A stretch of DNA of 64,000 nucleotides from Candidatus Eiseniibacteriota bacterium. Lineage in GTDB: Bacteria > Eisenbacteria > RBG-16-71-46. The position numbers were made by a program, and so were the translations under genes. Below are positions 5,245 to 45,733 of the stretch, piece by piece; the first letter of the stretch is position 1; every line of letters starts with the position of its first letter. The notes under the pieces are model-generated. The model was not told where the DNA came from and searched no databases. It saw only the letters and a list, made by a program, of their open reading frames with translations. The DNA is taken from assembly GCA_963717505.1 (NCBI GenBank), contig OY970342.1:2432001-2496000 (forward strand), written 5' to 3'.

Positions 5245-6804
5245 CTACTGCTTCCCGCCGGTCTGCAGCGCCTCGAGCGCCTGGTCGATCGAGAAGCTGC
5301 CGGGCCTCTGGCTGGGTGGGAACTCCTTGAAGGTGGACAGGAACTGGGCGACGTACGCCTGGGCGGGGTAGAGCAGGAAGACGTGCTCGACGCGCCAGCG
5401 TTCGTAGTCCATGCCTTCGTGGTCGGCGGTCTCGAACGGATCCGAACGCAGGTTGAAGAGCTTGGGCAGGCGCAGCGGCACGAACGGCTCCTCCCACACC
5501 TCCATCCCATGCGCGCGCTGCTCCGCGAACACGACCTTCCATTGGTCGTAGCGCAGCCCGACCAGCGAGCCATCGTCGTTGAAATAGAAGAACTCCCGGC
5601 GCGGGCTCGGCTGCTTGCCGGCGAGTGCTTGGGTCAGGTCGTACCCATCGAGGTGGACCTTGAACGTCTTGGCGCCGGCCTTGTGGCCCTTCAGCAGTTT
5701 TCCCTTGATGTCCGGGACGCCGGCCGCGGCGAGCAACGTCGGCAGCATGTCCTCGTGGGCGAAGATGTCGTTGAGCACGGTGCCAGGCTGGGTCACCCCC
5801 GGCCAGCGGATGGCGCACGGCACGCGATAGCCGCCTTCCCAGTTGGTGTTCTTCTCGCCGCGGAACGGCGACTGCCCACCGTCGGGCCAGGTGAACTTCT
5901 CGGCGCCGTTGTCGGTCGAATACATCACGATCGTGTTCTCGGCGAGTCCCAGCTCGTCGAGGGCCGCGAGCACCTCGCCGACCAGCGCGTCGTGCTCGAC
6001 CATGCCGTCGGGGTAGATGCCGAGGCCGGTCTTGCCTTGGCTCTCGGCCTTGAGCCGGGTCCAGACGTGCATGCGGGTCGAGTTCCACCACAGGAAGAAC
6101 GGCTGGTCCGCGTCTTTGGCTTCGCGCATGAAGCGGATCGCCTCGCGCGTGAACTCCTCGTCGATCGTCTCCATGCGCTTCTTGGTCAGCGGCCCGGTGC
6201 TCTCGATGCGCTGCGGACCCTTGGCGTTGGCCCACGAGTGGATCACTCCGCGAGTGCCATACCGCTTTCGCATCTCGGGGTCCTTGAAGTAGTCCGGATG
6301 CTCCGGCTCGTCCTCGGCGTTCAGGTGGTAGAGCGAGCCGAAGAACTCATCGAATCCGTGCGCGGTCGGCAGGTGCTCGTCGCGGTCGCCGAGGTGATTC
6401 TTGCCGAACTGGCCGGTCCGGTAGCCCTGGGCCTTGAGCAGCTCGGCGATGGTCACGTCGCGCGCCATCAGCCCTTCCTTGGCGCCCGGCATGCCGACCT
6501 TGAGCATTCCGGTGCGGAATCCGACCTGGCCGGTGATGAAGCTCGCGCGCCCGGCGGTGCAGCTCTGTTGCCCGTACCAGTCGGTGAACAGGACGCCCTC
6601 TTTGGCGATGCGGTCGATGTTCGGCGTCTTGTAGCCCATCATCCCCTGGTTGTAGGCGCTGACGTTCCAGAAGCCGATGTCGTCGCCCCAGATGATCAGG
6701 ATGTTGGGCTTGTCCGCGGCGTGCGCAGAAACCGCGCCGATGAGTGACGTTGCCGCGAGTGTGGCGAGCAAAACCGCTGCGGCGATGGCTGATCGTTGTT
6801 TCAT
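5245..6804 (-). CDS. arylsulfatase (Cys-type formylglycine sulfatase) with signal peptide
   Basis: KPNILIIWGDDIG, SCTAGRASFITG (CxAxR), GKNHLG, STDNG; start MKQR at 6804. Confidence 0.92.
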   Translation of the reverse strand: MKQRSAIAAAVLLATLAATSLIGAVSAHAADKPNILIIWGDDIGFWNVSAYNQGMMGYKTPNIDRIAKEGVLFTDWYGQQSCTAGRASFITGQVGFRTGMLKVGMPGAKEGLMARDVTIAELLKAQGYRTGQFGKNHLGDRDEHLPTAHGFDEFFGSLYHLNAEDEPEHPDYFKDPEMRKRYGTRGVIHSWANAKGPQRIESTGPLTKKRMETIDEEFTREAIRFMREAKDADQPFFLWWNSTRMHVWTRLKAESQGKTGLGIYPDGMVEHDALVGEVLAALDELGLAENTIVMYSTDNGAEKFTWPDGGQSPFRGEKNTNWEGGYRVPCAIRWPGVTQPGTVLNDIFAHEDMLPTLLAAAGVPDIKGKLLKGHKAGAKTFKVHLDGYDLTQALAGKQPSPRREFFYFNDDGSLVGLRYDQWKVVFAEQRAHGMEVWEEPFVPLRLPKLFNLRSDPFETADHEGMDYERWRVEHVFLLYPAQAYVAQFLSTFKEFPPSQRPGSFSIDQALEALQTGGKQ

Positions 6805-6920
6805 GGGCGCCTTTCGACGACTCGTGCAGGGGGCACACGGCGATTCCGCCGCGGCGCTGCTCGACCGGAGTTCCGGCAGTGTACATCGCGGCGAGTAGAA
6901 AGCTGCGACTCGCAGTCGAT

Positions 6921-8174
6921 CTACGCTGGTGAGGTCGGCGCCGCCAGGAACGCCTCGTGGAGTGCCCGCACCGCGTCGTCGGTGCGTTCGCCCGCGACGC
7001 GGAACACCAGTGCCGTCGGCGTGACCCTGAGCGCGATCACCGTGATGCCGGCGCGCTCCAGTGCCTCTTCGGCGCGCGCCGCCTCGGCGCCGCCCAGCCC
7101 CAGCCCGACCAGCGAAACGAACCCGCAGCCGTGTTGAACGTCGAGGCGCCATTCCATGCCCGGCCCGCGCAGTTCGTTGAAGCGGGCTTTGAGCGTCTCG
7201 GCATCCTCACGGTTGCCCACCCACACCAGGGCGTGATGAGCGCCACCTTCCTGCTCGTGCGCGACCAGGTCCATCTCGGGCAGCGCGCTGGCGACCGAGG
7301 CGATGATCGACCGGGCCTCGCCGCGCCCCCCGGCGTTGCCTTCGGCGATCGCGATCGAAGCGTCGGCCTGGTGTGCAATGGCGGTGATGGTCGGGGCTTC
7401 GATGGGCTCCATGGATCCTCCGGATTCGTGGGCGCCGCCGGCGCCGTTGGTGACGCGCGTGCCTTCGTGTTCTTCGAACGACGAGCGAACGACCACCGGC
7501 ACGCCGTGGCGCGCGGCGAGATCGACCGAGCGCGCGTGCAGCACGCGGCCGCCCAGGTGCGCGATGGTCGAGCACAGTCGATAGGACAGGCGTGGGACGA
7601 CGCGAGCCGAGGAAACCAGTCGCGGATCGGCGGTCATCACCCCGCGCACGTCGGTCAGGATCTCGCAGGACGAGGCTCCGAGTGCGGCGGCCAGGGCGAC
7701 CGCGGTCGTGTCCGAGCCGCCGCGTCCCAGGGTCGTGATCTCGCGGGTCGTGGGGTTCACGCCCTGAAATCCAGCGACGATCACCACCCGGCGCCGGTCC
7801 AGCTCGGCGCGGATCCGGTCGGGCCGGATGTCGGTGATGCGCGCGGTGCGATGGTGGTCCGAGGTCAGGATGCCGCTCTGCGATCCGGTGAACGAGATCG
7901 CGGCGGTTCCGAGATCCTGAAGGGCCATCGCCAGCAGCGACATCGACACGCGCTCGCCAACGGTCAGCAGCATGTCCAACTCGCGGCCGCTCGGGACGCG
8001 AGCGACTTTGTGAGCGAGTGCCAGCAGCTCATCGGTGGTCTGTCCCATGGCCGAAACCACGACCACCAGGTCGTGACCGGCGCGGCGGGCGGCGGCGATC
8101 CGTTCGGCCACCGCGCGCAATCGCTCGGGGCCGGCCACCGAAGTGCCGCCGTACTTCTGGACGATGAGGGCCAT
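6921..8174 (-). CDS. lysC: aspartate kinase
   Basis: [39 protein letters not shown]; C-terminal ACT-like region. Confidence 0.93.
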
Positions 8175-32988: not shown

Positions 32989-34278
32989 TCAGGCGAGAAC
33001 CGCTTCGAGACTCCGCGGTACGCCCGCGGTCAGCACCTCGGGCTCGTCGCGCCGTACGCGGACGTTGTCCTCGATCCGGATGCCGCCGAACTCCTCGAGC
33101 TCGTCGACGCGCGACCAGACCACCGTGTCGCGATGCTCCGCGCGGCGCTCCGGATTGTTGAGCAACGCGGAAATGAAGTAGACGCCGGGCTCGACCGTGA
33201 TCACGTAGTCGAGTTCGAGCGGCAGATCGGTGCGCAGCATGCCCAGCCCGGGCCGCGTGCTGCGGATGCGTCCCGGGAGATAACCGCTGGCGTCGCGCAC
33301 GCCGAGCCCGACCAAATGCCCGAGCCCGTGCGGGTAGAACAGTGCGTGGGCGTCGCGCTCGACCAACTCTTCGGGGTGGCCGCGGAGGATTCCGAGGTCC
33401 ACGAGCCCGGCCGCGATCTCGTACGCTGATTTCATGTGGACGTCACGCCACTCGGCTCCGGGTACGCAGCGCGCGACCGCCCGTTCGTTGACGCCGAGCA
33501 CCAGCGCGTACAGCTCGCGGAAGAAGCCCGGATCGCCGCCGGCAGCGCGGTAGGTGCGCGTGACGTCGCTCGCGTAGCGCTGGACTTGCGCTCCGGCGTC
33601 GATCAGAACGCTGTCGCCTTCGCGGATCACGCGAGTACTCGGCGTGAAGTGGAGGACGGCCGAGTTGGATCCGGCGCCGACGATGGTGTGATACGCGGTA
33701 GCATCGCCGCCGTTTCGCTGGAACGTGGCCTCCAGTTCGATCTGGACGGCGCGCTCGGTGACCCCGGCCTGAATCATACGCTGGGCGGCTTCGAAACCGG
33801 CCGCGGTGGCGGCCGCCGCGCGGCGCATGCGTTCGAGCTCGACCGCATCCTTCGGTCGGCGCGCGTGCATGAGGATCTCGCGCAGCTCCAGGGCGCGCGC
33901 GGTGTCGCCCTGGATTCCCGGCAATGCGCAGCCGAGCGAAATGATCGGTTGCCCGCGGCGCGCTTCGAGCCAACCTGCCAGTTCGTCGAGCGGCGTACCC
34001 GGCGCCTCGGTGCGCCCTTCCCACACGCGTTCGGCCTCGGTCACCGGCGGAACGAAGTCGGTCCAGCCCGATTGGGGATCGAACGCGAGCACGCCGCCGG
34101 GAGTCTCGCGATCGGCGAGATAGAAGTACTCGGCATGACTCATGAACGGATAAACCTGGTCGGCGCCTCCGGGCACCGAGATCAGCTCGCCGGCGCCGAA
34201 CAGGACGACCTCGCGCTCGAGCTTCCAGGCGGCGGCGATGCGCTCACGGCGTCGTTTCAGGTAGTCGGTCATGCGCAT
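32989..34278 (-). CDS. pepP: Xaa-Pro aminopeptidase (M24B)
   Basis: LIDAG..YASDVTRT, PHGLGHLVGL, TVEPGVY, GGIRIEDNV; start could be 34272. Confidence 0.9.
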   Translation of the reverse strand: MRMTDYLKRRRERIAAAWKLEREVVLFGAGELISVPGGADQVYPFMSHAEYFYLADRETPGGVLAFDPQSGWTDFVPPVTEAERVWEGRTEAPGTPLDELAGWLEARRGQPIISLGCALPGIQGDTARALELREILMHARRPKDAVELERMRRAAAATAAGFEAAQRMIQAGVTERAVQIELEATFQRNGGDATAYHTIVGAGSNSAVLHFTPSTRVIREGDSVLIDAGAQVQRYASDVTRTYRAAGGDPGFFRELYALVLGVNERAVARCVPGAEWRDVHMKSAYEIAAGLVDLGILRGHPEELVERDAHALFYPHGLGHLVGLGVRDASGYLPGRIRSTRPGLGMLRTDLPLELDYVITVEPGVYFISALLNNPERRAEHRDTVVWSRVDELEEFGGIRIEDNVRVRRDEPEVLTAGVPRSLEAVLA

Positions 34279-34281
34279 ACT

Positions 34282-35823
34282 CTAGCCGGTCGCGACGCGA
34301 TCGCGAAAACGCTGCAACCGGCCGCGATCGACCTTGCCCAGGTGCGTGCGTGGCAGGGCGTCGAGGAACACGACTTCGCGGGGGTGCTTGTAGGCGTCGA
34401 GCCGGGTGCGCACGAACTCGCGCAGCTCCTCGCCGAGCCCGTCGCGGCGCTCCTTGGCGACCACGAACGCCAGCGGCTTGACCAGCCCATTCGCATCCGC
34501 GACGCCGACCACCGCCGCCTCGCTCACCGCCGGGTGCTGGAGCAGGCAGCCCTCGACTTCGGCCGGGGCCAGCCACTTGCCGGCAACCTTGAGCAGCTCG
34601 TCGCCGCGGCCGCAGTAGGTGACGAAGCCGTCGGCGTCGCGGCGAATCAGGTCGCCCGAGACGTACCAGTCGCCGCGGAAGCCTTGCTGGGTCTTTTCCA
34701 TCTGCTGCCAGTAGGCGATCGCGCGCGCGCCGCCGCGCACCCACAGCCAGCCGGTCTCTCCGGGGGGCAGGTCGCGCCCGTCGTCGTCGCAGACTTTGAC
34801 CTCGAAGCCGGGAACGACCGTGCCGAGTGTCCCCGGACGCGCGGCACCCGGACGGTTCGAGATGAAGATGTGCCACATCTCGGCGGTGCCGAGGCCGTCG
34901 AGCAGATCGACGCCGAAGGTCTCGCGCCAGCGCTCGTGCAGCTCGACCGGCAGCGCTTCGCCCGCCGAGGTGCACACCCGCAGCGAGGACAAGTCCTGCG
35001 CCTTGGCGTCGGGGTGGGACACCATCTTGTGGATCATGGTCGGAACGTTGATCAGGATGGTCGGCCGGAACCGCCGGATACGCTCGAACACGACGTCGGC
35101 GGTGACCGGCTCGGGAAACAACGCCGAGGCGCCGCCGGCCGCAAACGGAAACAGCAGGTTCGAGCCGGTCGCGTACCCGAAGTAGAGCTTGGGGATCGAC
35201 ATCGTGACGTCGTCACGCGAGTAGCCGATCACCTGCCGGGCGTAGCAGTCATTCGTAAAGGCGAACGAGCGGTGCGTCTGGACGACGGCTTTCGGGCGGC
35301 CGGTGGTGCCGCCGGAGAAGAGCCAGATGGCGGCATCGTCCCGATGGGAGGGGAAGGTCTCGAAGTCGGGCGAGGACGCGGCGAGCTTGTCGTCGGTCTC
35401 GCGCTCGCCGATCACCAGGATCGCCTTCACGAAACGCGATCCGTCCGCCGCCTCGCGGAACGTAGCGGCCGTGTCGCGGTGAGCGACGACAACGCGCGCG
35501 CGCGAGTAGTCGAGCAGGTGACGGAGGTCGGAGGCCGGCAGCGCCGGATTCACCATCACGACCACCGCGCCGAGCTCGAGCGTGCCGAACAGCGCGCCGA
35601 CGAACTCGGGGCCGTCCGGCAGCGCGATCAGCACGCGCTGCTCGGGTTCCGCGCCGGATGCGGCGAGCAGGTTCGCGAAGCGGTGGGCCAATGCCTGGAC
35701 ATCGGCGTAGCTCAAAGTGCCGCCGTCGGTGCGCAGGGCGGCGCGCTCGCCGAGTCCTTCGCGCACTCGGGCATCGAGGAACCAGTCGGCGACGTTCAAC
35801 TGTTCCGGCGGATCGAAGCTCAT
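34282..35823 (-). CDS. benzoate/2-aminobenzoate-CoA ligase family protein
   Basis: WLFSGGTTGRPKAV, KLYFGYATG, SAGEALP, DGLGTAEMWHIF, WYVSGD, PRTHLGK; adjacent to the anthranilate cluster. Confidence 0.88.
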   Translation of the reverse strand: MSFDPPEQLNVADWFLDARVREGLGERAALRTDGGTLSYADVQALAHRFANLLAASGAEPEQRVLIALPDGPEFVGALFGTLELGAVVVMVNPALPASDLRHLLDYSRARVVVAHRDTAATFREAADGSRFVKAILVIGERETDDKLAASSPDFETFPSHRDDAAIWLFSGGTTGRPKAVVQTHRSFAFTNDCYARQVIGYSRDDVTMSIPKLYFGYATGSNLLFPFAAGGASALFPEPVTADVVFERIRRFRPTILINVPTMIHKMVSHPDAKAQDLSSLRVCTSAGEALPVELHERWRETFGVDLLDGLGTAEMWHIFISNRPGAARPGTLGTVVPGFEVKVCDDDGRDLPPGETGWLWVRGGARAIAYWQQMEKTQQGFRGDWYVSGDLIRRDADGFVTYCGRGDELLKVAGKWLAPAEVEGCLLQHPAVSEAAVVGVADANGLVKPLAFVVAKERRDGLGEELREFVRTRLDAYKHPREVVFLDALPRTHLGKVDRGRLQRFRDRVATG

Positions 35824-35838
35824 GGTAGGTTGCGCATC

Positions 35839-37098
35839 ATGGACGCGCGATTCCGAGGTGGCAACTCCGGAAGGGCCAACGCGGTCGGTAGCGGAGTCGG
35901 CGCTTCGACGGGGGCTCCGGCGCGTTTCGGCCGGGACCTGCTGAAACTCTGGCCGCTGGACCCGAACATCATCTACCTGAATCACGGCACGGTCGGCGCG
36001 CCACCGCGTCGCGTGCTCGAGGCGCAGCAGCGGATCCGCGACGAAATGGTGCGGCAGCCCTCGCGATTCCTGTTGCGCGAGCTGACGCTGATCGGGGCCG
36101 GAGCCCACCGACCCGCCCTGCCGCGGATGCGGGCGGCGGCGGGTGAGGTCGCCGGTTTCGTCGGCGCACGCGCCGACGATCTGGTGTTCGTCGACAACGC
36201 GACCACCGGCGCCAACGCCGTGCTGCGCTCGTTCGACCTGCGGGCCGGCGACGAGATCCTGATGCTCGAAGGCTGCTACGGCGCAGTCCTCAATACGGCT
36301 CGCTACGTGTCACGGATGCGCCAGGCCGAGGTGCGCATCGTCGAGTTGCCGTACCCGCTGGATGGACCGGACGCGATCACGCGCGCGTTCACCAGCGCGC
36401 TCGGACCCAGGACACGCATTGCCGTGATCGACCACATCATGTCGGAGAGCGCGTTACTGCTGCCGGTCGCCGAGATCGCGGCGGCCTGTCGGGCCCGAGG
36501 TGTGCCGCTGTTGGTCGATGGCGCTCATGCACCCGGCGCGATTGCGTTGGACATTCCGTCTCTGGGCGTGGATTGGTACACGGGAAACTTGCACAAATGG
36601 GCGCAGTCACCACATACGTCGGCGATTCTGTGGGTGTCGCCCGAGCGTCAGAAAGACATGCATCCGGTGGTCATTTCGTGGGGACTCGATCAAGGTTTCA
36701 CGACGGAATTCGATCTGGTCGGCACCCGCGACCCCTCGGCGCATCTCGCCGCACCCGAAGGCATCGCGTTCATGCGCGAGCTGGGCGTGCGCGAGATGCA
36801 GGCTTACAACCATGCGCTGGCCTGGGAGTCGGGCAAGCTGCTGACGCGGCGGTTCGAAACCGAGATCGGAAAGCCGGAGAGTATGGTCGGCACCATGATC
36901 ACGATTCCGCTACCCGAGCGCGCTGGGCGCACGCGCGAGCAGGCTGCGACCCTGCGCGATGCCCTGCTGTTCGAGGATCGGATCGAGGTCCCGATCCACG
37001 CCTGGCGCGAGCGGTTGTGGGTGCGGGTGTCGGCGCAGGTCTACAACGACCTGCGCGACGTCGAGCGATTGGCGGAAGCGCTGGCGGCAAGGGTTTGA
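35839..37098 (+). CDS. class V PLP enzyme (isopenicillin N epimerase/EgtE/cysteine desulfhydrase-like)
   Basis: YLNHGTVGA, DNATTG, VDGAHAPG, NLHKW, GTRD, RVSAQVYN. Confidence 0.85.
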   Translation: MDARFRGGNSGRANAVGSGVGASTGAPARFGRDLLKLWPLDPNIIYLNHGTVGAPPRRVLEAQQRIRDEMVRQPSRFLLRELTLIGAGAHRPALPRMRAAAGEVAGFVGARADDLVFVDNATTGANAVLRSFDLRAGDEILMLEGCYGAVLNTARYVSRMRQAEVRIVELPYPLDGPDAITRAFTSALGPRTRIAVIDHIMSESALLLPVAEIAAACRARGVPLLVDGAHAPGAIALDIPSLGVDWYTGNLHKWAQSPHTSAILWVSPERQKDMHPVVISWGLDQGFTTEFDLVGTRDPSAHLAAPEGIAFMRELGVREMQAYNHALAWESGKLLTRRFETEIGKPESMVGTMITIPLPERAGRTREQAATLRDALLFEDRIEVPIHAWRERLWVRVSAQVYNDLRDVERLAEALAARV

Positions 37099-37216
37099 GC
37101 GACGGGTGGTCCTGGGCTGATACCGAAGAAACAAGGACCAGGCCGTCCCCGGCGAATCCGCGTCGTTTGAAGTGGGATTTCGTCGCGGCGGCTCCGAGAC
37201 GCTAGTCTGGACCGCC

Positions 37217-37987
37217 ATGAGCGCTCCCCAACTCGCCGAACTCACTTGGGAAGAGGTGCGCGATCTCGACCACGCGCGGACCGTGGCGATTCTGCCGGTC
37301 GGCGCGATCGAGGCGCATGGCCCTCATCTGCCGATCGGCACCGACGTCGTGATCGCGAACGCCATGGCGCGCGCCGCGGCCGAAAAGCTTGCGGGCGAGG
37401 GTCGGAAAGCCGTGCTCCTGCCGGCGCTGCACTACACGGCAGCGCCTTTCGGGGCCGCATTCCCCGGAACGATTTCTGTGGCTCCTGCGACGGTCACCGC
37501 TCTGGCTCTGGACATCGCCCGAGAGCTGACGCGACACGGCTTCGCGATCCTGGCCATCGCGAATCCCCATCTCGATCCCACGCATCTCGGGGCGTTGAAC
37601 GACGCAGTCGCGCGCGCGCGCGAGGAGAAACTGCTTCCTGTCGCTTTCCCCGACCTGACCCGCAAGCCGTGGGCCGGACGGTTGACCGAGGAGTTCCAAA
37701 GTGGCGCCTGCCACGCCGGACGTTTCGAGGGCTCGATCGTGATGGCGGAACGTCCGGATCTGGTGCGCAAGGCGATCGCGAGCGGGTTGGCGCCGAATCC
37801 ATCATCGCTTTCGGACGCGATTCGCCGGGGGGATCGCACATTCGAGGCGGCCGGCGGACCGCGCGCATATTTCGGCGCGCCCGCCGAGGCGACGATCGAG
37901 GAAGGTCGAGCGTCGATCGCGATACTCGGCGCGATTCTGGCCGAGTCGGTGCTGATCACGATGTCCGGCGCCGAGGCGCGACCGTGA
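37217..37987 (+). CDS. creatininase-family metal amidohydrolase
   Basis: LTWEEV, PVGAIEAHGPHLPIGTD, ANPH, HAGRFEGS. Confidence 0.88.
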   Translation: MSAPQLAELTWEEVRDLDHARTVAILPVGAIEAHGPHLPIGTDVVIANAMARAAAEKLAGEGRKAVLLPALHYTAAPFGAAFPGTISVAPATVTALALDIARELTRHGFAILAIANPHLDPTHLGALNDAVARAREEKLLPVAFPDLTRKPWAGRLTEEFQSGACHAGRFEGSIVMAERPDLVRKAIASGLAPNPSSLSDAIRRGDRTFEAAGGPRAYFGAPAEATIEEGRASIAILGAILAESVLITMSGAEARP

Positions 37988-39171
37988 CCCTGCTGCTCGC
38001 CGGGCGCGCGGCGGTGGTCACCGGCGGCGGACGCGGAGTCGGCGCCGCGATTGCGGGAGCGTTGGCCGGCGCTGGGGCCCGCGTGGTGGTCGCGGCGCGC
38101 ACCGCGAGCGAGGTCGAGAGCGTAGCCTCGACGATGCGCGCCGAGGGCGCCCAGATCTGGGCGACGACCTGCGACGTCTCGGACGAGGCCAGCGTGCGGG
38201 TACTGGGAGAGACCGCGCGCAAACATGCCGGGAGCATCGACATTCTCGTGAACAATGCCGGGACCGCGGCGTCGGCGCCGCTCGCGCGCATCGGCCTCGA
38301 CGACTGGAACGCCATGTTCGCGGTCAACGCGACCGGCACGTTCCTGTGCAGCCGCGAGTTCGTGCCCGACATGGTCGCGCGCGGCCGCGGCCGGGTGGTC
38401 AACATCGCTTCGATCGCCGGCCTCGAAGGCGGCCGCTACATCGCGCACTACAGCGCCGCCAAGCATGCGGTGGTCGGCTTCACGCGCTCGCTGGCGCACG
38501 AAGTCGCCGGCACCGGCGTCACCGTCAACGCGGTCTGTCCCGGCTACGTCGACACCTCGATCACGACGCGCTCGATCGACCACGTGGTCGCCCGGACTGG
38601 CCGGTCGCGCGACGAGGCGCTGGCCGCCATACTGGCGACCACCGGCCAGTCGCGGTTGATCGCGCCGGGCGAGGTGGCCGAGGCGGTGCTCGCGTTGTGC
38701 GGCGACCGGGCGTCGGAGATCAACGGCAGAACGCAGGTGCTCGAGGGGGTCGTGGGCGAAAGCGGATTCGAGATCGTGAACCCGGCGGAACTGGGCGAAC
38801 CCAAAGGCTGGAGCAATGGCATGCTGGCGCCGGCGCGCGGCCGCTTGCTGCTGATCGCCGGGCAAACCGGCTTGCCGGCGCAAGGCGCCGCCGCAGCGCC
38901 GCCGTTCGTCGAACAATTCGCGCGCGCGCTCGATCGCGTACTGGCGGTGGTGCGCGAGGCCGGCGGCCGTCCGGTCGACATCGGGCGCATGACCGTGTAC
39001 GTCACCGACCTGGCCGCCTACGTCGACAGTCGCAAGGCGCTGGCCGTGGTATGGCGCGAGCGATTCGGGAAGCACTACCCGGCGATGGCGCTGCTCGAGG
39101 TCCGCGGACTGGTCGACGCCGGAGCCCAGGTCGAAATCGAGGCGACGGCGGTGATCGGGGGGAGCGGCTAG
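37984..39171 (+). CDS. SDR oxidoreductase fused to RidA/YjgF domain
   Basis: TGGGRGVG, NNAG, YSAAK; then PKGWSNG..IAGQ..YPAMALLEV..VEIEATA. Confidence 0.85.
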   Translation: MTLLLAGRAAVVTGGGRGVGAAIAGALAGAGARVVVAARTASEVESVASTMRAEGAQIWATTCDVSDEASVRVLGETARKHAGSIDILVNNAGTAASAPLARIGLDDWNAMFAVNATGTFLCSREFVPDMVARGRGRVVNIASIAGLEGGRYIAHYSAAKHAVVGFTRSLAHEVAGTGVTVNAVCPGYVDTSITTRSIDHVVARTGRSRDEALAAILATTGQSRLIAPGEVAEAVLALCGDRASEINGRTQVLEGVVGESGFEIVNPAELGEPKGWSNGMLAPARGRLLLIAGQTGLPAQGAAAAPPFVEQFARALDRVLAVVREAGGRPVDIGRMTVYVTDLAAYVDSRKALAVVWRERFGKHYPAMALLEVRGLVDAGAQVEIEATAVIGGSG

Positions 39172-39974
39172 TGCCGATCGCACCGAAGTCGTTCCTCTAT
39201 TCAGTCGACTCGGCGAGTGGCGTTGCGACCATCACTCTTAACCGCCCCGAGCGCCTGAACGCCCTGACGTTCGAGGTCTACGGCGAGTTGCGCGACACGT
39301 TCCGCGCACTCGACACCGAGCCCGGCGTTCGCGCGATCGTCATCACCGGCGCGGGTCGCGGCTTCTGCTCGGGCGGCGATGTCGAGGACATCATCGGCGC
39401 ACTGTTCGGACGAGACTCCGCAGGGCTCCTCGCATTCACCCAAATGACCTGCGACCTGGTGCTCGCGATCCGGCATTGCTCGCGGCCGGTAATTGCGGCG
39501 CTCAACGGCACGGTGGCCGGCGCCGGTGCGGTGATCGCCACCGCCTGCGACTTCCGGATTGCCGCCGAGTCGGCGAAGATCGCGTTCCTGTTCGTGCGCG
39601 TCGGACTCTCGGGCGCCGACATGGGAGCCTCGTGGCTGCTGCCGCGCATCGTGGGGCTGGGACATGCGACCGAGCTGTTGATGACCGGGGAATTCATCGA
39701 CGCGAAACGTGCGGCCGAGATCGGGCTCTACCATCGCGTGGTGGCTCAGGACCGGGTGGTGGCCGACGCCACGGAATTCGCGGCCCGCCTGGCGCGCGGT
39801 CCGCTCGCGGCACTCGCGGTGACCAAGCAGGCATTGGAACTCGAGGCCGACATGACCCTCGCCGACGCGCTGGCCCACGAGGCTCGTGTCCAGGCCGAGC
39901 TGATGGAGCATCCCGACTACCGCGAGGCCTACGAGGCGTTTCGCGCCAAGCGCGAGCCGAGGTTCGCGCGGTGA
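39171..39974 (+). CDS. enoyl-CoA hydratase family protein
   Basis: [35 protein letters not shown]. Confidence 0.9.
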
Positions 39975-41128
39975 TGCGTATTCCCGACGCCGCGCCGATT
40001 CGCGCGCTGCTCGACCCGGCGCACGTTGCGTTCGCCGGCAAGGTCGGCGCCTTCGCGGCACGCGAAATTTCGAGCCTGCCGGCGCCCGAGAGCGACGACG
40101 CAGCCCGGCGCACCGCGCGCGAGCTGGTCTCGCGGCTCGGCGGCGCCGGGTGGTTCGAGCCGATCCGCCGGCAGGACTGGCGTGCCTGCTGCCTGACGCG
40201 CGAGGCGCTGGCCGCCGCACTGCCGCTCGCCGACGCCGTGTTCGCGCTTCAGGGGTTGGGTTCCCTGCCGATCTTCGCCGCGGGCAGCAACGAATTGCGG
40301 ACAGGCTGGGCCGACGCGGCGATCGAAGGCCGCGCCATGGCCGCCTTCGCAATGACCGAGCGCGACGCGGGCTCCGACGTCGCCGCGATGGCGACCACCG
40401 CGCGGCGCGACGGCGATCACTACGTGCTCGATGGCACCAAGACCTACATCTCGAATGCCGGCATCGCCGACTTCTACACCGTGTTCGCCAAGACCGATCC
40501 CGCCGCCGGCAGCCGCGGCGTCTCTTGCTTCGTGGTGCCGGCCGACACGCCGGGATTGCGTTTCGTCCGGCCGCTGGTGCTCTCGGCGCCGCATCCGCTG
40601 GGCGAGATCGCTTTCGAAGGTTGCCGGGTGCCGGCGGCGAATCGATTGGGCGAGGAGGGCAAAGGATTCGGACTCGGACTCAAGGTGCTCGATCGCATGC
40701 GCGCCACCGTGGGTGCGGCCGCGTGCGGCATGGCCGCGCGCGGATTGTCCGAAGCGCTCGACTACGCTCGCGCTCGAAGGCAATTCGGCAAGCCGATCGC
40801 CGAGTTCCAACTGGTGCAGGAGAAGCTGTCGCGCATGGCGACCGAGCTGACCGCGGCGCGCCTCATGGTCTATCGGGCGGCGTGGGCGGCCGACGGCGGC
40901 GCCGAGCGAGTGACCCTCGAGGCAGCGATGGCCAAGAGCTTCGCGACCGAGGCGGCGCAGCGCATCGTCGACGACGCGGTCCAGGTGCTGGGTGGGGTGG
41001 GACTCATGGCGTCGCACCCGGTCGACCACCTCTATCGCGCGGTGCGCGCGCTCCGCATCTACGAAGGCACGACCGAGATCCAGCACCTGGTGATCGCCGG
41101 GCAACTCTTGAAGGAGGCCGAGGCGTGA
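39974..41128 (+). CDS. acyl-CoA dehydrogenase
   Basis: [45 protein letters not shown]. Confidence 0.92.
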
Positions 41129-43428
41129 AGGCCGTCGCCATCGGCGGCGGGCCGGCCGGCCTGTTCTTCGCATTGCTTTTGAAGAAGGCCAACCCGAAGC
41201 ACGACGTGTCGGTCTATGAGCGGAACCGGCTCGATGACACCTTCGGCTTCGGCGTCGTGTTCTCGGATGCGACCGAGGAGGCACTCGCCCAGGCCGATCC
41301 CGAGACCATCGCCGCGATGGCGGCGGCCTGCCACCGCTGGGACGACATCGAAATCCACTATCGGGGTGAGATGCTGACCTCGACCGGCCACGGTTTCTCG
41401 GGTCTATCGCGGCGAACCTTGCTCGAGATCCTGGCCGGCCGATGCCGGGCCGCAGGTGTCCACCTGTGCTTCGAGCGCGAGATCAAAGACCCCGAGTCGC
41501 TGCGCGACGCCGATCTGGTGTTCGCTGCAGACGGCGTCAACTCGATGGTGCGCGAGCGCTATCGCGAACACTTCCAGCCGGTGATCGACACCCGACCCAA
41601 CAAGTTCGTGTGGCTGGGCACCACCCGGCCGTTCCCGGCGTTCACCTTCTATTTCAAGCCCACCGAACACGGCCTGTGGCGGGTGCACGCCTACCAGTAC
41701 GAGCCGGGCGCCTCGACCTTCATCGTCGAGGCGCGCGACGAGACCTGGCGCGCCGCGGGGCTCGAACGCGCGAGCGAAGCCGACACGATCGCGTTCTGCG
41801 AGCGGCTGTTCGCCGAGGAACTCGACGGTCACCGGTTGGTCTCGAATCGCTCGGTGTGGCGCAGCTTCCCGACCATCCGCAATCAGCACTGGCATCACGG
41901 CAACCTCGTGCTCGCCGGCGACGCCGCGCACACAGCGCACTTTTCGGTGGGTTCGGGGACCAAGCTGGCGATGGAGGACGCGATCGCACTGGTCGCCGCC
42001 CTCGGCGCGCACCGCGACATCCCGGAGGCGCTTGCCGCCTACGAGGCGGTTCGCCGCCCGGGGGTCGAAAGTCTCCAGCGCGCGGCGCAGGCCAGTCTTC
42101 AGTGGTTCGAGGACACCGAGCGCTACATGGATCTCGAGCCGATCCAGTTCGCGTTCACGCTGCTCACGCGCAGCCTGCGGGTCACGCACCAGAATCTGAA
42201 GGTGCGCGATCCCAAGTTCGTCGCCCAGGTCGATGAGTGGTTCGCCGATCGGGCCGACCGACAGGTGGCAGGTAAGAGCGGTTCTTCCGGCGTGAAAGGA
42301 GAGGCCGTTGGCAAGATCTCGGCGGGCACACCGCCCGGGCGCGTGCCGCCCCCGATGTTCACGCCGTTTCGCTTGCGCGACCTGCTGCTCGAGAACCGCG
42401 TCGTGGTCTCGCCGATGTGCCAATACTCGGCCGAGGACGGCATGCCCGACGACTGGCACCTCGTGCATTTGGGTGCGCGCGCGGTGGGCGGCGCCGGGCT
42501 GGTCTACGCCGAGATGACCGACGTCAGCCGTGACGGCCGCATCTCGCCGGGCTGCACCGGCCTCTACAAGCCCGAGCACGTGCCGGCGTGGAAGCGCATC
42601 GTCGACTTCGTGCACGGGAACACCCGCGCCAAGATGGGGATCCAGCTCGGGCACGCCGGCCGCAAAGGGTCGACTCGTTTGTCGTGGGAGGGCGACGTCG
42701 AGCCGCTGATCGCCGAGAACTGGCCGATCGTCTCGGCCTCGGCCATTCCGTGGCGGCCCCACAGCCAGGTGCCGAAGGAGATGACCCGCGCCGACATGGA
42801 TGGGGTGATCGCCGACCACGTGCGCGCCGCGGGCTACGCACTCGAAGCCGGCTTCGACCTGCTCGAAATCCACATGGCGCACGGCTATTTGCTGGCGAGC
42901 TTCATCTCGCCGCTCACCAACCGTCGCACCGACGAGTACGGGGGTACGATCGAGAACCGCATGCGTTTCCCGCTCATGGTGTTCGATGCGGTGCGCGCCG
43001 CGTGGCCCCAGCACCAGCCGATGTCGGTGCGCATCTCGGCGGTCGACTGGTTCCCGGGTGGCCACGACCCGGCCGATGCGGTCGATGTCGCGCGCCTGCT
43101 CGCCGAACACGGCTGCGACATCGTCGACGTCTCGGCCGGGCAAACCGTGCCCGATCAGCAACCGATCTACGGACGGATCTTCCAGACCCCATTCGCCGAT
43201 CGCATTCGCCACGAAGCCGGGATCGCGACCATGGCGGTCGGCAACATCTCGTCGTACGCGGACGTCAACACCATCCTCGCGGCGGGCCGGGCCGATCTGT
43301 GCCTGCTCGCGCGCGCTCATTTGTGGGATCCCTACTGGACCCGACACGCCGCCTACGAACTCGGCTGGCCACTGGCCTGGCCCGATCCCTACGAGTCCCT
43401 GAACACGTTTCGGCCGCGGTTCACCTAG
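41125..43428 (+). CDS. abmA: anthraniloyl-CoA monooxygenase/reductase (bifunctional salicylyl-CoA 5-hydroxylase/oxidoreductase)
   Basis: [38 protein letters not shown] flavin monooxygenase fused to OYE-like [16 protein letters not shown] domain. Confidence 0.9.
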
Positions 43429-43475
43429 ACATTTCGTGCCGCGACGCCAGTCGCCGCGGCGCAGGAGATCGGACG

Positions 43476-44252
43476 ATGACCGTCACCTACGGCAGTTACC
43501 TCAGACTCGACGAGCTGCTCGCGCAGCAGCAGCCGCTCTCGGACGAACACGACGAGATGCTGTTCATCGTCATCCACCAGGTCTACGAGCTGTGGTTCAA
43601 GGAACTGCTGCACGAAATCGATTATCTGAAGAAGATGCTGGAGGCCGGCGACGAGCCGCGCGCGCTGCACACGTTCAAGCGCATCCTGACCATCCTCAAG
43701 GTCGTGGTCGCCCAGATCGACGTGCTCGAAACCATGACCCCGCTCGAGTTCCTGTCGTTCCGCAACCGACTCGAAAGCGGGAGCGGATTCCAGTCGTTCC
43801 AGTTCCGCGAGCTGGAGTTCGTGCTCGGCGCGAAAGACCCGGCGGCGCTCGAGCGCTACCCGAATGGCAGCGCTGCGCGCGGACGACTCGAACGGCGTGT
43901 GGCGGAGCCGACGCTGTGGGACTCGTTCCTGCGCTACCTGGTGTTGCGCGGGCATCCGGTGCCGCGCATGCAGCTCCAGCGCGACGTGCGCCAGCCGGTG
44001 GCGGCCGCGCCCGAGTTGGAGCCGCTGCTGCTGGACCTCTATCGTAGGGACTCGATGGTCCGCACGCTGTGCGAACGACTGGTCGACCTCGACGAAGGCA
44101 TCCAGGAATGGCGCTACCGGCACGTCAAAATGGTGCAGCGCACGATCGGCACGCGGCGCGGCACGGGAGGGTCGGCGGGCGCGGACTACTTGATGCAAAC
44201 GATCAATCGACCGATGTTTCCCGACCTATGGAGCATTCGGACGCAATTCTAG
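43476..44252 (+). CDS. kynA: tryptophan 2,3-dioxygenase
   Basis: TYGSYLRLDELL, HDEMLFIVIHQVYELWFK, SGFQSFQFR, GTGGSAG. Confidence 0.95.
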   Translation: MTVTYGSYLRLDELLAQQQPLSDEHDEMLFIVIHQVYELWFKELLHEIDYLKKMLEAGDEPRALHTFKRILTILKVVVAQIDVLETMTPLEFLSFRNRLESGSGFQSFQFRELEFVLGAKDPAALERYPNGSAARGRLERRVAEPTLWDSFLRYLVLRGHPVPRMQLQRDVRQPVAAAPELEPLLLDLYRRDSMVRTLCERLVDLDEGIQEWRYRHVKMVQRTIGTRRGTGGSAGADYLMQTINRPMFPDLWSIRTQF

Positions 44253-44279
44253 GCCGACACACAACAGGAGGTTCGAAGC

Positions 44280-44501
44280 ATGAACAAGTCCCTGCGGTTG
44301 CTGCCCACTCTCTTGCTCTTTGCCACGTCCGCGCACGCGCATGATGGCCATGGTGTTGTGGAGCGGTCGGGGTCGTGGCTCCACTACGTGCTCGAACCGG
44401 TGCACCTGCCAGTGACACTGCTCGCGGTCGGGATCTTGCTGGTCGGCGGTCGCTGGACGTTCCGGCGCCTCGAACGATCGATGTCCTCCCGCCGCCGTTG
44501 A
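44280..44501 (+). CDS. small His-containing membrane protein
   Basis: AGGAGG RBS; signal-like segment, AHAHDGHG, HYVLEPVH, one TM segment; overlaps the next start. Confidence 0.6.
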   Translation: MNKSLRLLPTLLLFATSAHAHDGHGVVERSGSWLHYVLEPVHLPVTLLAVGILLVGGRWTFRRLERSMSSRRR

Positions 44502-45733
44502 CGCACCCGTCGCCGGCCGCTGGGGCCGTGCATTCCATCGAGTCATTGGCGCGCGACACCAACTCGCTCGCCCCTCTCTACTCTCGGTTCCGCGTCGCCG
44601 ATCGGCTGCTGCTGACCGGCCACTCTCATCAGGCGTGGCCGGACGTGGCGTTCGAGGGCCAGAATCAAGCATGGCTCGATGCCGCTGAATTCGTGGACGA
44701 AAAGTGGTTGCGCGCCGAGCAACAGGCCGACGCGGTTCGCGCGGGGTTCGCGCGGCTGCTCGACGATCGCGACGGCCTGATCGCGCTCGGCACCAGCACC
44801 CACGAGCTGGTGATCCGCTTCCTGTCGGCGCTGCCGCTCGAGCAACGGCCGCGGCTGGTGACCACCGACGGCGAGTTCCACACGCTGCGCCGTCAGCTCG
44901 ATCGTTTCGCCGAGACCGGGCGCATCGAGGTAGTCAAGGTTCCGGCGCTGCCGGCAGCGACCGCTGCCGATCGCCTGGCCGCCGCCGTCAACGATCGCAC
45001 GGCCGCGGTGCTGGCTTCTTCGGTCCTGTTCGCCAATTCGCACATGGTGCCCGGCCTCGGCCGCGTACTCGAGGCCTGCCGCAAGGTCGGAGCGGAGCTC
45101 TTGGTCGACGTCTATCACCAGCTCAATGTCGTCCCGGTGTCGGTGGAGCGAGAACACCTCGGCGGCGCGTTCGTGGTCGGCGGCGGCTACAAGTACTGCC
45201 AGCTCGGCGAGGGCAATTGCTTCCTGCGCGTCCCGCCCGGGCGCGACGAGCTGGCGCCGGTGATCACCGGATGGTTCAGCGAGTTCGGACGCCTCGCCCA
45301 ACGCCCGGAAGGCGCCGTGCCTTACGGGGAAGGTGCCGCACGCTGGGCGGGGGCGACTTACGACCCGACCAGCCACTATCGCGCCGCGCGAGTCTTCAAC
45401 TTCTTCGAGGCGCAGTCGCTATCGCCCGAGTTCCTGCGTGCGGTCAGCCAGAGCCAGATCGGCGTCCTGGCGTCGGCGTTCGATTCGCTCGACCTCGATC
45501 CCAGGATCGTCACGCGCGATCGCGACACGCCGCTCGCGGCAATTGGTGGATTCCTGGCGCTCATCAGTCCGCACGCAGAGGAGCTCTCACTCTTGTTGCG
45601 CGCGCGGGGTGTGGCCACCGACGTACGCGGCCCGCTGCTCAGGCTCGGTCCAGCGCCGTACCTGTCGGACTCACAACTGCGCGACGCGATCGCGGTGCTC
45701 GGCACGGTCGTGCGGCAGGACTTGGCGCGCTAG
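44498..45733 (+). CDS. kynU: kynureninase (atypical type)
   Basis: LTGHSHQAWP, DVYH, GGYKYCQLGEG (PLP Lys), TGWF, LRLGPAPY; next to kynA; start TTG 44498 or GTG 44528. Confidence 0.82.
   Translation: MTHPSPAAGAVHSIESLARDTNSLAPLYSRFRVADRLLLTGHSHQAWPDVAFEGQNQAWLDAAEFVDEKWLRAEQQADAVRAGFARLLDDRDGLIALGTSTHELVIRFLSALPLEQRPRLVTTDGEFHTLRRQLDRFAETGRIEVVKVPALPAATAADRLAAAVNDRTAAVLASSVLFANSHMVPGLGRVLEACRKVGAELLVDVYHQLNVVPVSVEREHLGGAFVVGGGYKYCQLGEGNCFLRVPPGRDELAPVITGWFSEFGRLAQRPEGAVPYGEGAARWAGATYDPTSHYRAARVFNFFEAQSLSPEFLRAVSQSQIGVLASAFDSLDLDPRIVTRDRDTPLAAIGGFLALISPHAEELSLLLRARGVATDVRGPLLRLGPAPYLSDSQLRDAIAVLGTVVRQDLAR

Follow-up and report, generated by a model that had tools for sequence, protein, structure and literature searches.

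When the genes of a bacterial tryptophan operon lie on either side of a deformylation step and no familiar formamidase lies among them, what removes the formyl group? No other step of bacterial tryptophan catabolism has its gene 'missing' so often. The question is raised here by a stretch of 64,000 nucleotides from a Candidatus Eiseniibacteriota bacterium (assembly GCA_963717505.1, contig OY970342.1, positions 2,432,001 to 2,496,000), hereafter the window. At positions 34282-45733 of the window, a gene for a creatininase-family protein keeps company with tryptophan 2,3-dioxygenase (TDO, kynA), a divergent kynureninase, and genes of the aerobic 2-aminobenzoyl-coenzyme A (CoA), or Abm, route. 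The original prediction, drawn from the letters of the window, took the creatininase-family protein for a non-orthologous replacement of kynurenine formamidase. With modest confidence, and on comparative grounds, we assign it as the probable arylformamidase of an upper pathway from tryptophan to anthraniloyl-CoA, acting on N-formylkynurenine or, less likely, on N-formylanthranilate.

The operon as a whole would carry L-tryptophan to anthraniloyl-CoA and on into the Abm route. TDO would open the indole ring to give N-formyl-L-kynurenine; the creatininase-family enzyme, with a predicted two-metal centre (E32/H34/D43 and H118/D120, with H166 and E171), would hydrolyse the aryl-formamide bond and release formate; the divergent kynureninase would produce anthranilate and alanine; a divergently transcribed ligase would form anthraniloyl-CoA; finally, an AbmA-type enzyme would dearomatise the ring, and a fusion of a short-chain dehydrogenase/reductase (SDR) with RidA, a hydratase and a dehydrogenase would process the product. 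The substrate of the second step would most likely be N-formylkynurenine, giving kynurenine; alternatively it would be N-formylanthranilate, met after the lyase has acted. The gene identities at family level, the conservation of metal ligands, the synteny and the co-occurrence are observed; what the creatininase-family enzyme acts on, and in which order the steps run, we infer.

The protein is a clear member of its family. It matches PF02633 at 182.7 bits (gathering cut-off 31.3) over profile positions 1-236 of 238, and falls under the equivalog cut-offs for the mycofactocin peptidase MftE (TIGR03964, 100.1 bits vs 172) and for creatininase (TIGR04448, 85 vs 235). IolN, a 3-dehydro-scyllo-inosose hydrolase in the NCBIfam description, is matched weakly at family level (E 1e-8); the ESM Atlas returned only clusters automatically named 'creatininase family protein', and no functional lead. 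An AlphaFold2 model (predicted local distance difference test score, pLDDT, 83.9) was searched with Foldseek: all 26 matches at E<=0.001 are creatininase-family structures, with template-modelling (TM) scores of 0.64-0.70, and they do not discriminate between substrates. All 22 orthologues compared keep residues E32, H34, D43, H118, D120, H166 and E171 unchanged. The motifs align with those of creatininase (EAHGPH..TD with EQHGHH..VD, NPHLD with NGHYE, CHAGRFE with EHGGVFE), and one metal ligand is Asp here and Glu in creatininase; the metal ligands and catalytic His of the Pseudomonas putida enzyme we take to be E34, H36, D45, H120, E122 and H178. On this evidence the protein is presumably an active two-metal amidohydrolase of a distinct subfamily.

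That subfamily is large. Among 7999 candidates scored, 3151 relatives were found at E<=1e-10, and relatives of about 255 aa with 67-76% identity are very numerous in metagenomes. Six relatives are longer: four are creatininase-SDR fusions of 525 aa (90%-identity protein clusters P0124-P0127), and the other two (P0128, P0129), which have no second domain, are probably over-long gene calls. No fusion of the creatininase domain to TDO, kynureninase or ligase was found, which is weak evidence, as long candidates crowd each other out. The source genome also carries a second PF02633 paralogue (140 bits; G000:C1:2588369-2588839, positions 6343-7059 of locus L114), which directly follows an Alternative Complex III operon (molybdopterin/4Fe-4S subunit, NrfD, ActD, cytochrome c) and has no kyn genes nearby.

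The usual formamidases were sought in the cluster and in the genome. The original prediction had seen no cyclase-family KynB and no alpha/beta-hydrolase in the cluster, and Pfam indeed finds neither PF04199 nor an alpha/beta-hydrolase domain among the cluster genes. The search for kynB elsewhere, proposed at the same time, was made across the whole source genome (G000, 4.16 Mb in a single contig): the KynB model TIGR03035 has no match there at E 1e-10, and PF04199 has one match, 1.6 Mb from the window. That sole PF04199 protein reads QSGTQWD where two aligned KynB-like proteins of related genomes read HTGTHAD and HLGSHVD, the KynB motif being HxGTHxD. To judge by these profile and motif comparisons, the genome is without canonical KynB. 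The PF04199 protein itself (332 aa; L001 1291-2289, minus strand, at about 4.10 Mb of G000:C1) has Gln in place of the two motif histidines (QSGTQWDALAH) and may be a non-metal or altered-metal member of its family; it adjoins an open reading frame (ORF) of 367 aa.

The arrangement is conserved across phyla. Scanning species-representative genomes for the pattern gave 596 confirmed relatives, of which the best 80 loci were analysed by tblastn with the proteins of the window, the exceptional loci being checked with Pfam; locus titles include Gemmatimonadota, Candidatus Eisenbacteria, Planctomycetota, Acidobacteriota and Casimicrobiaceae, among others. The creatininase orthologue is present in 80/80 loci, from several phyla, most of them with the same neighbours; over at least five phyla its identity stays at about 55-76% and its place in the operon is fixed. 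A divergent ligase lies within 1 kb upstream in 56 of the 64 loci with at least 2 kb of upstream sequence (57 if L078, with a 2-nt overlap, is included), SDR-RidA lies directly downstream in 63 of 71 loci with enough flank, AbmA is in the locus in 39 of 49 with at least 6.5 kb downstream, and TDO or kynureninase in 33 of 40 with at least 8.5 kb downstream. An arrangement of this kind is far beyond chance.

The loci in which the cluster is split show which neighbours the gene keeps. One (L030) reads ligase, then, divergently, creatininase-TDO-kynureninase-IS1595 transposase; in another (L007), TDO-kynureninase-ligase stands divergent to the creatininase gene, which is followed by unrelated genes; two planctomycetal loci (L034, L046) have kynureninase-ligase divergent to it. 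The ligase-creatininase pair stands alone in L056 and in L044, the latter with an added MFS transporter. An acidobacterial locus (L017) has creatininase-SDR-RidA-TDO-kynureninase-alpha/beta hydrolase, with no ligase, in a genome without AbmA. In split clusters, then, the creatininase gene often stays with ligase, kynureninase or TDO, which are upper-pathway genes. It has no ligase in reach in five loci (L017, L043, L059, L068, L070).

Genome-wide counts extend the association. The phylum was sampled with 206 genomes, KynB-like genes being scored at E<=1e-30 and AbmA at E<=1e-150; the creatininase orthologue is present in 66, TDO in 84, a KynB-like gene in 45 and AbmA in 67. All 66 carriers of the orthologue have TDO, and 63 have AbmA. 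A 64th (G255) has a frameshifted AbmA; its locus (L099, G255:C11:358000-374000) holds the whole operon, with AbmA, dehydrogenase, TDO and SDR-RidA in pieces in different frames, and these breaks look like assembly indel errors rather than decay. TDO occurs without the orthologue in 18 genomes, of which one (G074) has a partial copy and two (G152, G248) are 58-60% complete. The check for anti-correlation with kynB that accompanied the original prediction turned out in its favour: a KynB-like gene is found in 3/66 carriers (G214, G076, G132) vs 8/15 of the remaining TDO-positive non-carriers, although these counts, from related genomes that inherit the cluster as one unit, overstate the independent evidence. 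In a set of 41 relatives that takes in the source genome, 10 genomes have the orthologue, and the same 10 have TDO and full-length AbmA; KynB-like matches of at least 130 bits occur in 17, and the overlap with those 10 is a single genome, G076. Two genomes (G036, G076) are flagged as unpublished, and no conclusion rests on either alone.

KynB-like genes nevertheless have to be read with care in this phylum. Cyclases of this kind (TIGR03035, 130-242 bits) are also found in 34/122 TDO-negative genomes of the sample; they are therefore unreliable markers of the kynurenine pathway here, and probably have a TDO-independent function. Fourteen KynB-like contexts (L100-L113, from 11 carriers and 3 non-carriers) contain no TDO, kynureninase, KMO or ACMSD within about 8 kb. 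For the other phyla, the genomes of 50 of the 80 loci were searched, chosen for long contigs and to take in typical and exceptional loci. TDO is present in 49/50 and AbmA, whole or fragmented, in 48/50, missing in G003 and G009; none of the 50 has a TIGR03035 match above the curated cut-off.

Some genomes and loci do without the creatininase gene. G136, G144, G095 and a second TDO locus of G003 combine TDO with an ACMSD-type amidohydrolase, a canonical kynureninase (KYNU_C 90-98 bits) and a KMO-like FAD monooxygenase. In this second locus of G003 the next genes after TDO are a KynB-like gene, RidA and an aldehyde dehydrogenase; this genome has two TDO genes, one paired with a KynB-like gene and the other in the creatininase locus. 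G145 (93% complete) has TDO, a separate canonical kynU-kynB operon, and an Abm cluster of proteobacterial type (AbmA, SDR, hydratase, dehydrogenase, ligase, RidA) without a creatininase gene. Among 72,556 plasmid and megaplasmid records no homologue of the creatininase-family protein was found (tblastn, E 1e-20); AbmA is found in 240 of these records. Two of the AbmA clusters were inspected, one from Ralstonia (AbmA, MarR, hydratase, dehydrogenase, ligase, thioesterase, RidA) and one from Phyllobacterium (AbmA, SDR, MarR, hydratase, dehydrogenase, ligase, RidA, with SDR and RidA separate); neither has TDO, kynureninase or a creatininase gene. Because the Ralstonia, Phyllobacterium and G145 clusters lack the creatininase gene, hydratase, dehydrogenase, ligase, RidA and usually SDR make up an Abm core that functions in its absence; the gene arrives with TDO and kynureninase.

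Not all of this speaks for a formamidase, and the points on the other side lead to different accounts of the gene. In the phylum sample, TDO, AbmA and the orthologue pass down together nearly as a unit, so that co-occurrence mostly fails to separate an upper-pathway from a lower-pathway role. The coupling to SDR-RidA in the window and its immediate succession in 63/71 loci point toward the lower pathway, as do the creatininase-SDR fusions, which tie the protein to the SDR; they are rare, and one indel in the 4-nt overlap of the two genes could yield such a fusion. Genus g2, which belongs to the family of the window, adds a further difficulty. Its four genomes (G155, G165, G166, G167; 90-99% complete) have TDO and lack the creatininase orthologue, a KynB-like gene, full AbmA and a ligase orthologue; at three loci (L087 in G166, L088 in G155, L094 in G167) an MFS gene stands divergent to TDO-divergent kynureninase-HTH-NnrS, the kynureninase at 65-69% identity. 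A TDO-kynureninase pair can therefore exist without the creatininase-family enzyme; such a minimal locus could serve alanine harvesting and export of the aromatic product. The coupling, the fusions and genus g2 would suit an enzyme that works with SDR-RidA in the lower, Abm, pathway, and the weak match to IolN would suit it too. The original prediction had kept a version of this as its alternative, a hydrolase acting on an Abm intermediate. Several findings weaken it: the Abm clusters of Ralstonia, Phyllobacterium and G145 work without a creatininase gene, AbmA is carried by 240 plasmid records and a homologue by none of the 72,556, the gene is kept beside ligase, kynureninase or TDO with no Abm genes nearby (L007, L030, L034, L046, L056), and the orthologue is present in G009, which has no AbmA. 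We regard a lower-pathway role as rather unlikely. Genus g2 could also mean that the formyl group leaves spontaneously or is removed by an unlinked enzyme, the clustered gene being unrelated or accessory. Canonical KynB was not found in the source genome, but no search was made for alpha/beta-hydrolase or amidohydrolase-type formamidases outside the cluster; elsewhere, a full-length KynB-like match (130-195 bits) is present in 11/50 carrier genomes of other phyla; the nine of these 11 contexts that were fetched have no kyn gene within about 8 kb, and such orphan genes could be the true formamidase acting in trans. The second PF02633 paralogue would be another candidate, and the antimycin pathway, in the part of a review consulted (PMC3869250), is drawn with TDO and kynureninase and no mention of a formamidase. 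Against unlinked or spontaneous deformylation stand the identity and fixed operon position of the orthologue over at least five phyla, which indicate a pathway-specific role, and the setting of the paralogue behind Alternative Complex III, away from any kyn gene; we consider it very unlikely.

Two further accounts start from the ligase, the commonest neighbour of the creatininase gene. The enzyme might be a TDO-independent amidase that supplies the ligase by splitting a different amide (an N-acyl-anthranilate or anthranilamide, for example) to anthranilate or a similar aromatic acid; the ligase-creatininase pairs kept alone in L056 and L044 agree with this. A TDO-independent feeder does not, however, predict TDO in every carrier of the phylum and in 49/50 elsewhere, nor the five loci with no ligase in reach, and no conserved importer or second amide-related gene stands alongside; this account seems quite improbable. 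In the other, the pathway is re-ordered: the divergent kynureninase would cut N-formylkynurenine to N-formylanthranilate and alanine, and the creatininase-fold enzyme would deformylate N-formylanthranilate for the adjacent ligase. Such an order would explain the ligase as commonest neighbour, the divergence of the kynureninase, and a genus g2 with TDO, kynureninase and an exporter and neither formamidase nor ligase; even so, we give it little credence. Set against these, the missing formamidase is, by comparative genomics, the probable leading explanation. Non-orthologous replacement of kynurenine formamidase, as originally proposed, draws support from the co-occurrence with TDO, the absence of the gene from TDO-less AbmA clusters, the rarity of KynB-like genes in carriers, and the precedent of BrbF discussed below; genus g2, the SDR fusions and the KynB-like genes in 11/50 carriers speak against it.

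The kynureninase of the window departs from the standard models. It has no NCBIfam match, scores 23 bits against KYNU_C (cut-off 27), and as a single sequence has no match in the PDB. A profile of 20 orthologues does match the P. fluorescens kynureninase 1QZ9 (E 4.4e-17, positions 10-395 vs 12-400), and in that alignment its GGGYKY faces the CTYKY lysine motif. The gene first labelled kynU is a divergent form; for TDO and the divergent kynureninase alike, family membership holds and equivalog status does not. The TDO scores 282.9 bits against TIGR03036, under the equivalog cut-off of 390.7. The divergent kynureninase represents a widespread subfamily that standard models overlook, seen in the window and in loci L003-L078, L087, L088 and L094.

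The genes of the region are collected in Table 1. The window has about 68% G+C, and genes were called from codon-position G+C together with Pfam and NCBIfam.

Table 1. Genes of the tryptophan cluster and its flank, in window coordinates
Gene product	Position	Strand	Basis of assignment
M24 Xaa-Pro-peptidase-like protein	32989..34278	-	Aminopeptidase-P N-domain; prolidase-like NCBIfam match
Aryl-CoA (anthranilate-type) ligase, 513 aa	34282..35823	-	AMP-binding + AMP-binding_C; TIGR02262 benzoate-CoA ligase family, 474 bits vs cut-off 375
Class-V pyridoxal phosphate (PLP) enzyme, C-S-lyase or cysteine-desulfurase-like	35839..37098	+	Aminotran_5 E 4e-13, C-terminal half
Creatininase-family metal amidohydrolase, 256 aa, candidate arylformamidase	37217..37987	+	PF02633 182.7 bits, E 1e-53
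SDR-RidA fusion	37984..39171	+	adh_short 204 bits + Ribonuc_L-PSP 55 bits
Enoyl-CoA hydratase-family protein	39171..39974	+	ECH_1 190.7 bits; NF006107 365.8 bits vs cut-off 330
Acyl-CoA dehydrogenase	39971..41128	+	Acyl-CoA_dh_1, _M and _2 domains
AbmA-type bifunctional aryl-CoA monooxygenase/reductase	41125..43428	+	NF006101 1148.3 bits vs cut-off 1078; FAD_binding_3 + Oxidored_FMN (OYE domain)
Tryptophan 2,3-dioxygenase (TDO, kynA)	43476..44252	+	PF03301 207 bits
Divergent kynureninase-family PLP lyase	44528..45733 (start uncertain: GTG 44375 or 44528)	+	KYNU_C sub-threshold; profile match to 1QZ9

Pfam and NCBIfam place in this region all the genes that had been read there at the outset: kynA, kynU, aryl-CoA ligase, abmA, acyl-CoA dehydrogenase, enoyl-CoA hydratase and SDR/RidA. 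Both the AbmA-type enzyme (NF006101) and the benzoate-CoA-ligase-family ligase (TIGR02262) score above cut-off, as members of an Abm-type cluster. The creatininase gene does overlap the start of the SDR gene, by 4 nt (GTGA), and in the genes from there to AbmA the best candidate for a start codon runs 1-4 nt into the end of the gene before it. The AbmA-type gene has a GTG start with AAGGAGG just 5', and TDO an ATG start with AGGAG upstream. The creatininase, SDR-RidA, hydratase, dehydrogenase, AbmA, TDO and kynureninase genes form a translationally coupled operon beside the divergent ligase, whose ATG lies at 35823-35821 and which is transcribed away from it. The third-position G+C of the creatininase gene is about 0.76, against about 0.85-0.95 in the genes after it, a difference that may stem from the history of the gene or from how strongly it is expressed.

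The operon does not, as had been thought, begin with the creatininase gene: the class-V PLP gene, overlooked at first, precedes it on the same strand. Its translation can begin in frame only at the ATG at 35839, which is 15 bp away from that of the ligase, and its best PDB matches are class-V aminotransferase/cysteine desulfurase entries (9AZB, E 2e-29) and the Egt2 C-S lyase. No orthologue was found by tblastn in any of the 80 related loci, and, of five relatives searched, G061 alone carries a copy (65% identity), immediately before its creatininase gene; it is an accessory gene of the cluster. On the other side, the M24 gene lies 3 nt from the ligase stop, its start abutting the ligase, and because of this spacing the two are probably co-transcribed. 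The M24 peptidase gene too was found by tblastn in none of the 80 loci. A creatinine/creatine pathway, made up of a creatininase and an M24 'creatinase-like' peptidase, was considered and rejected, since the N-domain of the M24 protein is that of aminopeptidase P, its NCBIfam match is prolidase-like, and it is absent from the 80 loci.

Should the assignment hold, the creatininase fold would be a further, unrelated kind of kynurenine or aryl formamidase, and the very large group of 'creatininase family proteins' in soil and water bacteria (Gemmatimonadota, Eisenbacteria, Planctomycetota, Acidobacteriota and others) would gain a function. It would complete a tryptophan-to-anthraniloyl-CoA operon that apparently serves these phyla, for the most part uncultured, as their chief route of tryptophan catabolism, and would correct an annotation that points to creatinine metabolism. 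No paper was found that links the creatininase family to kynurenine formamidase, in a literature search that left most subscription journals outside its coverage and supplements unopened. Relative to the literature searched the assignment is new; the fold, the reaction type and the pathway are each known.

How the system compares with known ones can be taken enzyme by enzyme. KynB (PF04199, TIGR03035) catalyses the reaction proposed here, N-formylkynurenine to kynurenine and formate between KynA and KynU, and is likewise a metal-dependent hydrolase; in G003 and G145 it adjoins TDO or a canonical kynureninase. It differs in belonging to an unrelated family with another fold: the window protein is a PF02633 member with no PF04199 match, and the HxGTHxD motif has no bearing on it. 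Deformylation is also known within the creatininase superfamily, to which archaeal ArfB, a formamidase of riboflavin biosynthesis, belongs; a control genome, that of M. jannaschii, matches PF02633. A bacterial counterpart is BrbF of Sinorhizobium meliloti (SMc02977), annotated as a creatininase, which according to the portion of its report consulted deformylates 2-amino-5-formylamino-6-ribosylaminopyrimidinone phosphate with a Km of 152 uM, groups with P. putida creatininase in the authors' tree, and is described by them as without sequence similarity to ArfB (PMC9478397). The N-formyl group of that substrate sits on an aromatic (pyrimidine) amine, which makes it an aryl-type formamide as N-formylkynurenine is, and the bond is of the type proposed here. 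BrbF and ArfB differ from the window protein in serving riboflavin biosynthesis, with a phosphorylated ribosylaminopyrimidine as substrate.

A structural relative is the creatinine amidohydrolase of P. putida (1J2T, 1Q3K, 3A6J), which has the same fold (Foldseek E 2e-13, TM 0.64-0.68) and conserved metal-ligand motifs; it differs in sequence, at 22-27% identity and with the TIGR04448 score far under cut-off, and the operon context here is unrelated to creatinine. No NCBIfam model scores higher than that of MftE (TIGR03964), another member of this Pfam family; its score of 100 bits is likewise under the cut-off of 172, and no mycofactocin-system model matched above cut-off among the ten cluster proteins scanned. 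As for the lower pathway, Azoarcus evansii has aerobic 2-aminobenzoyl-CoA (abm) clusters. The proteobacterial clusters of Ralstonia and Phyllobacterium share with the window the AbmA-type enzyme, ligase, hydratase, dehydrogenase and RidA, and in Phyllobacterium the SDR. The part consulted of the Arthrobacter Rue61a genome paper also supports a CoA-dependent anthranilate route (PMC3534580). The proteobacterial clusters differ from the window in having MarR and in being without TDO, kynureninase and creatininase; the window has instead a fused SDR-RidA and an upper tryptophan module.

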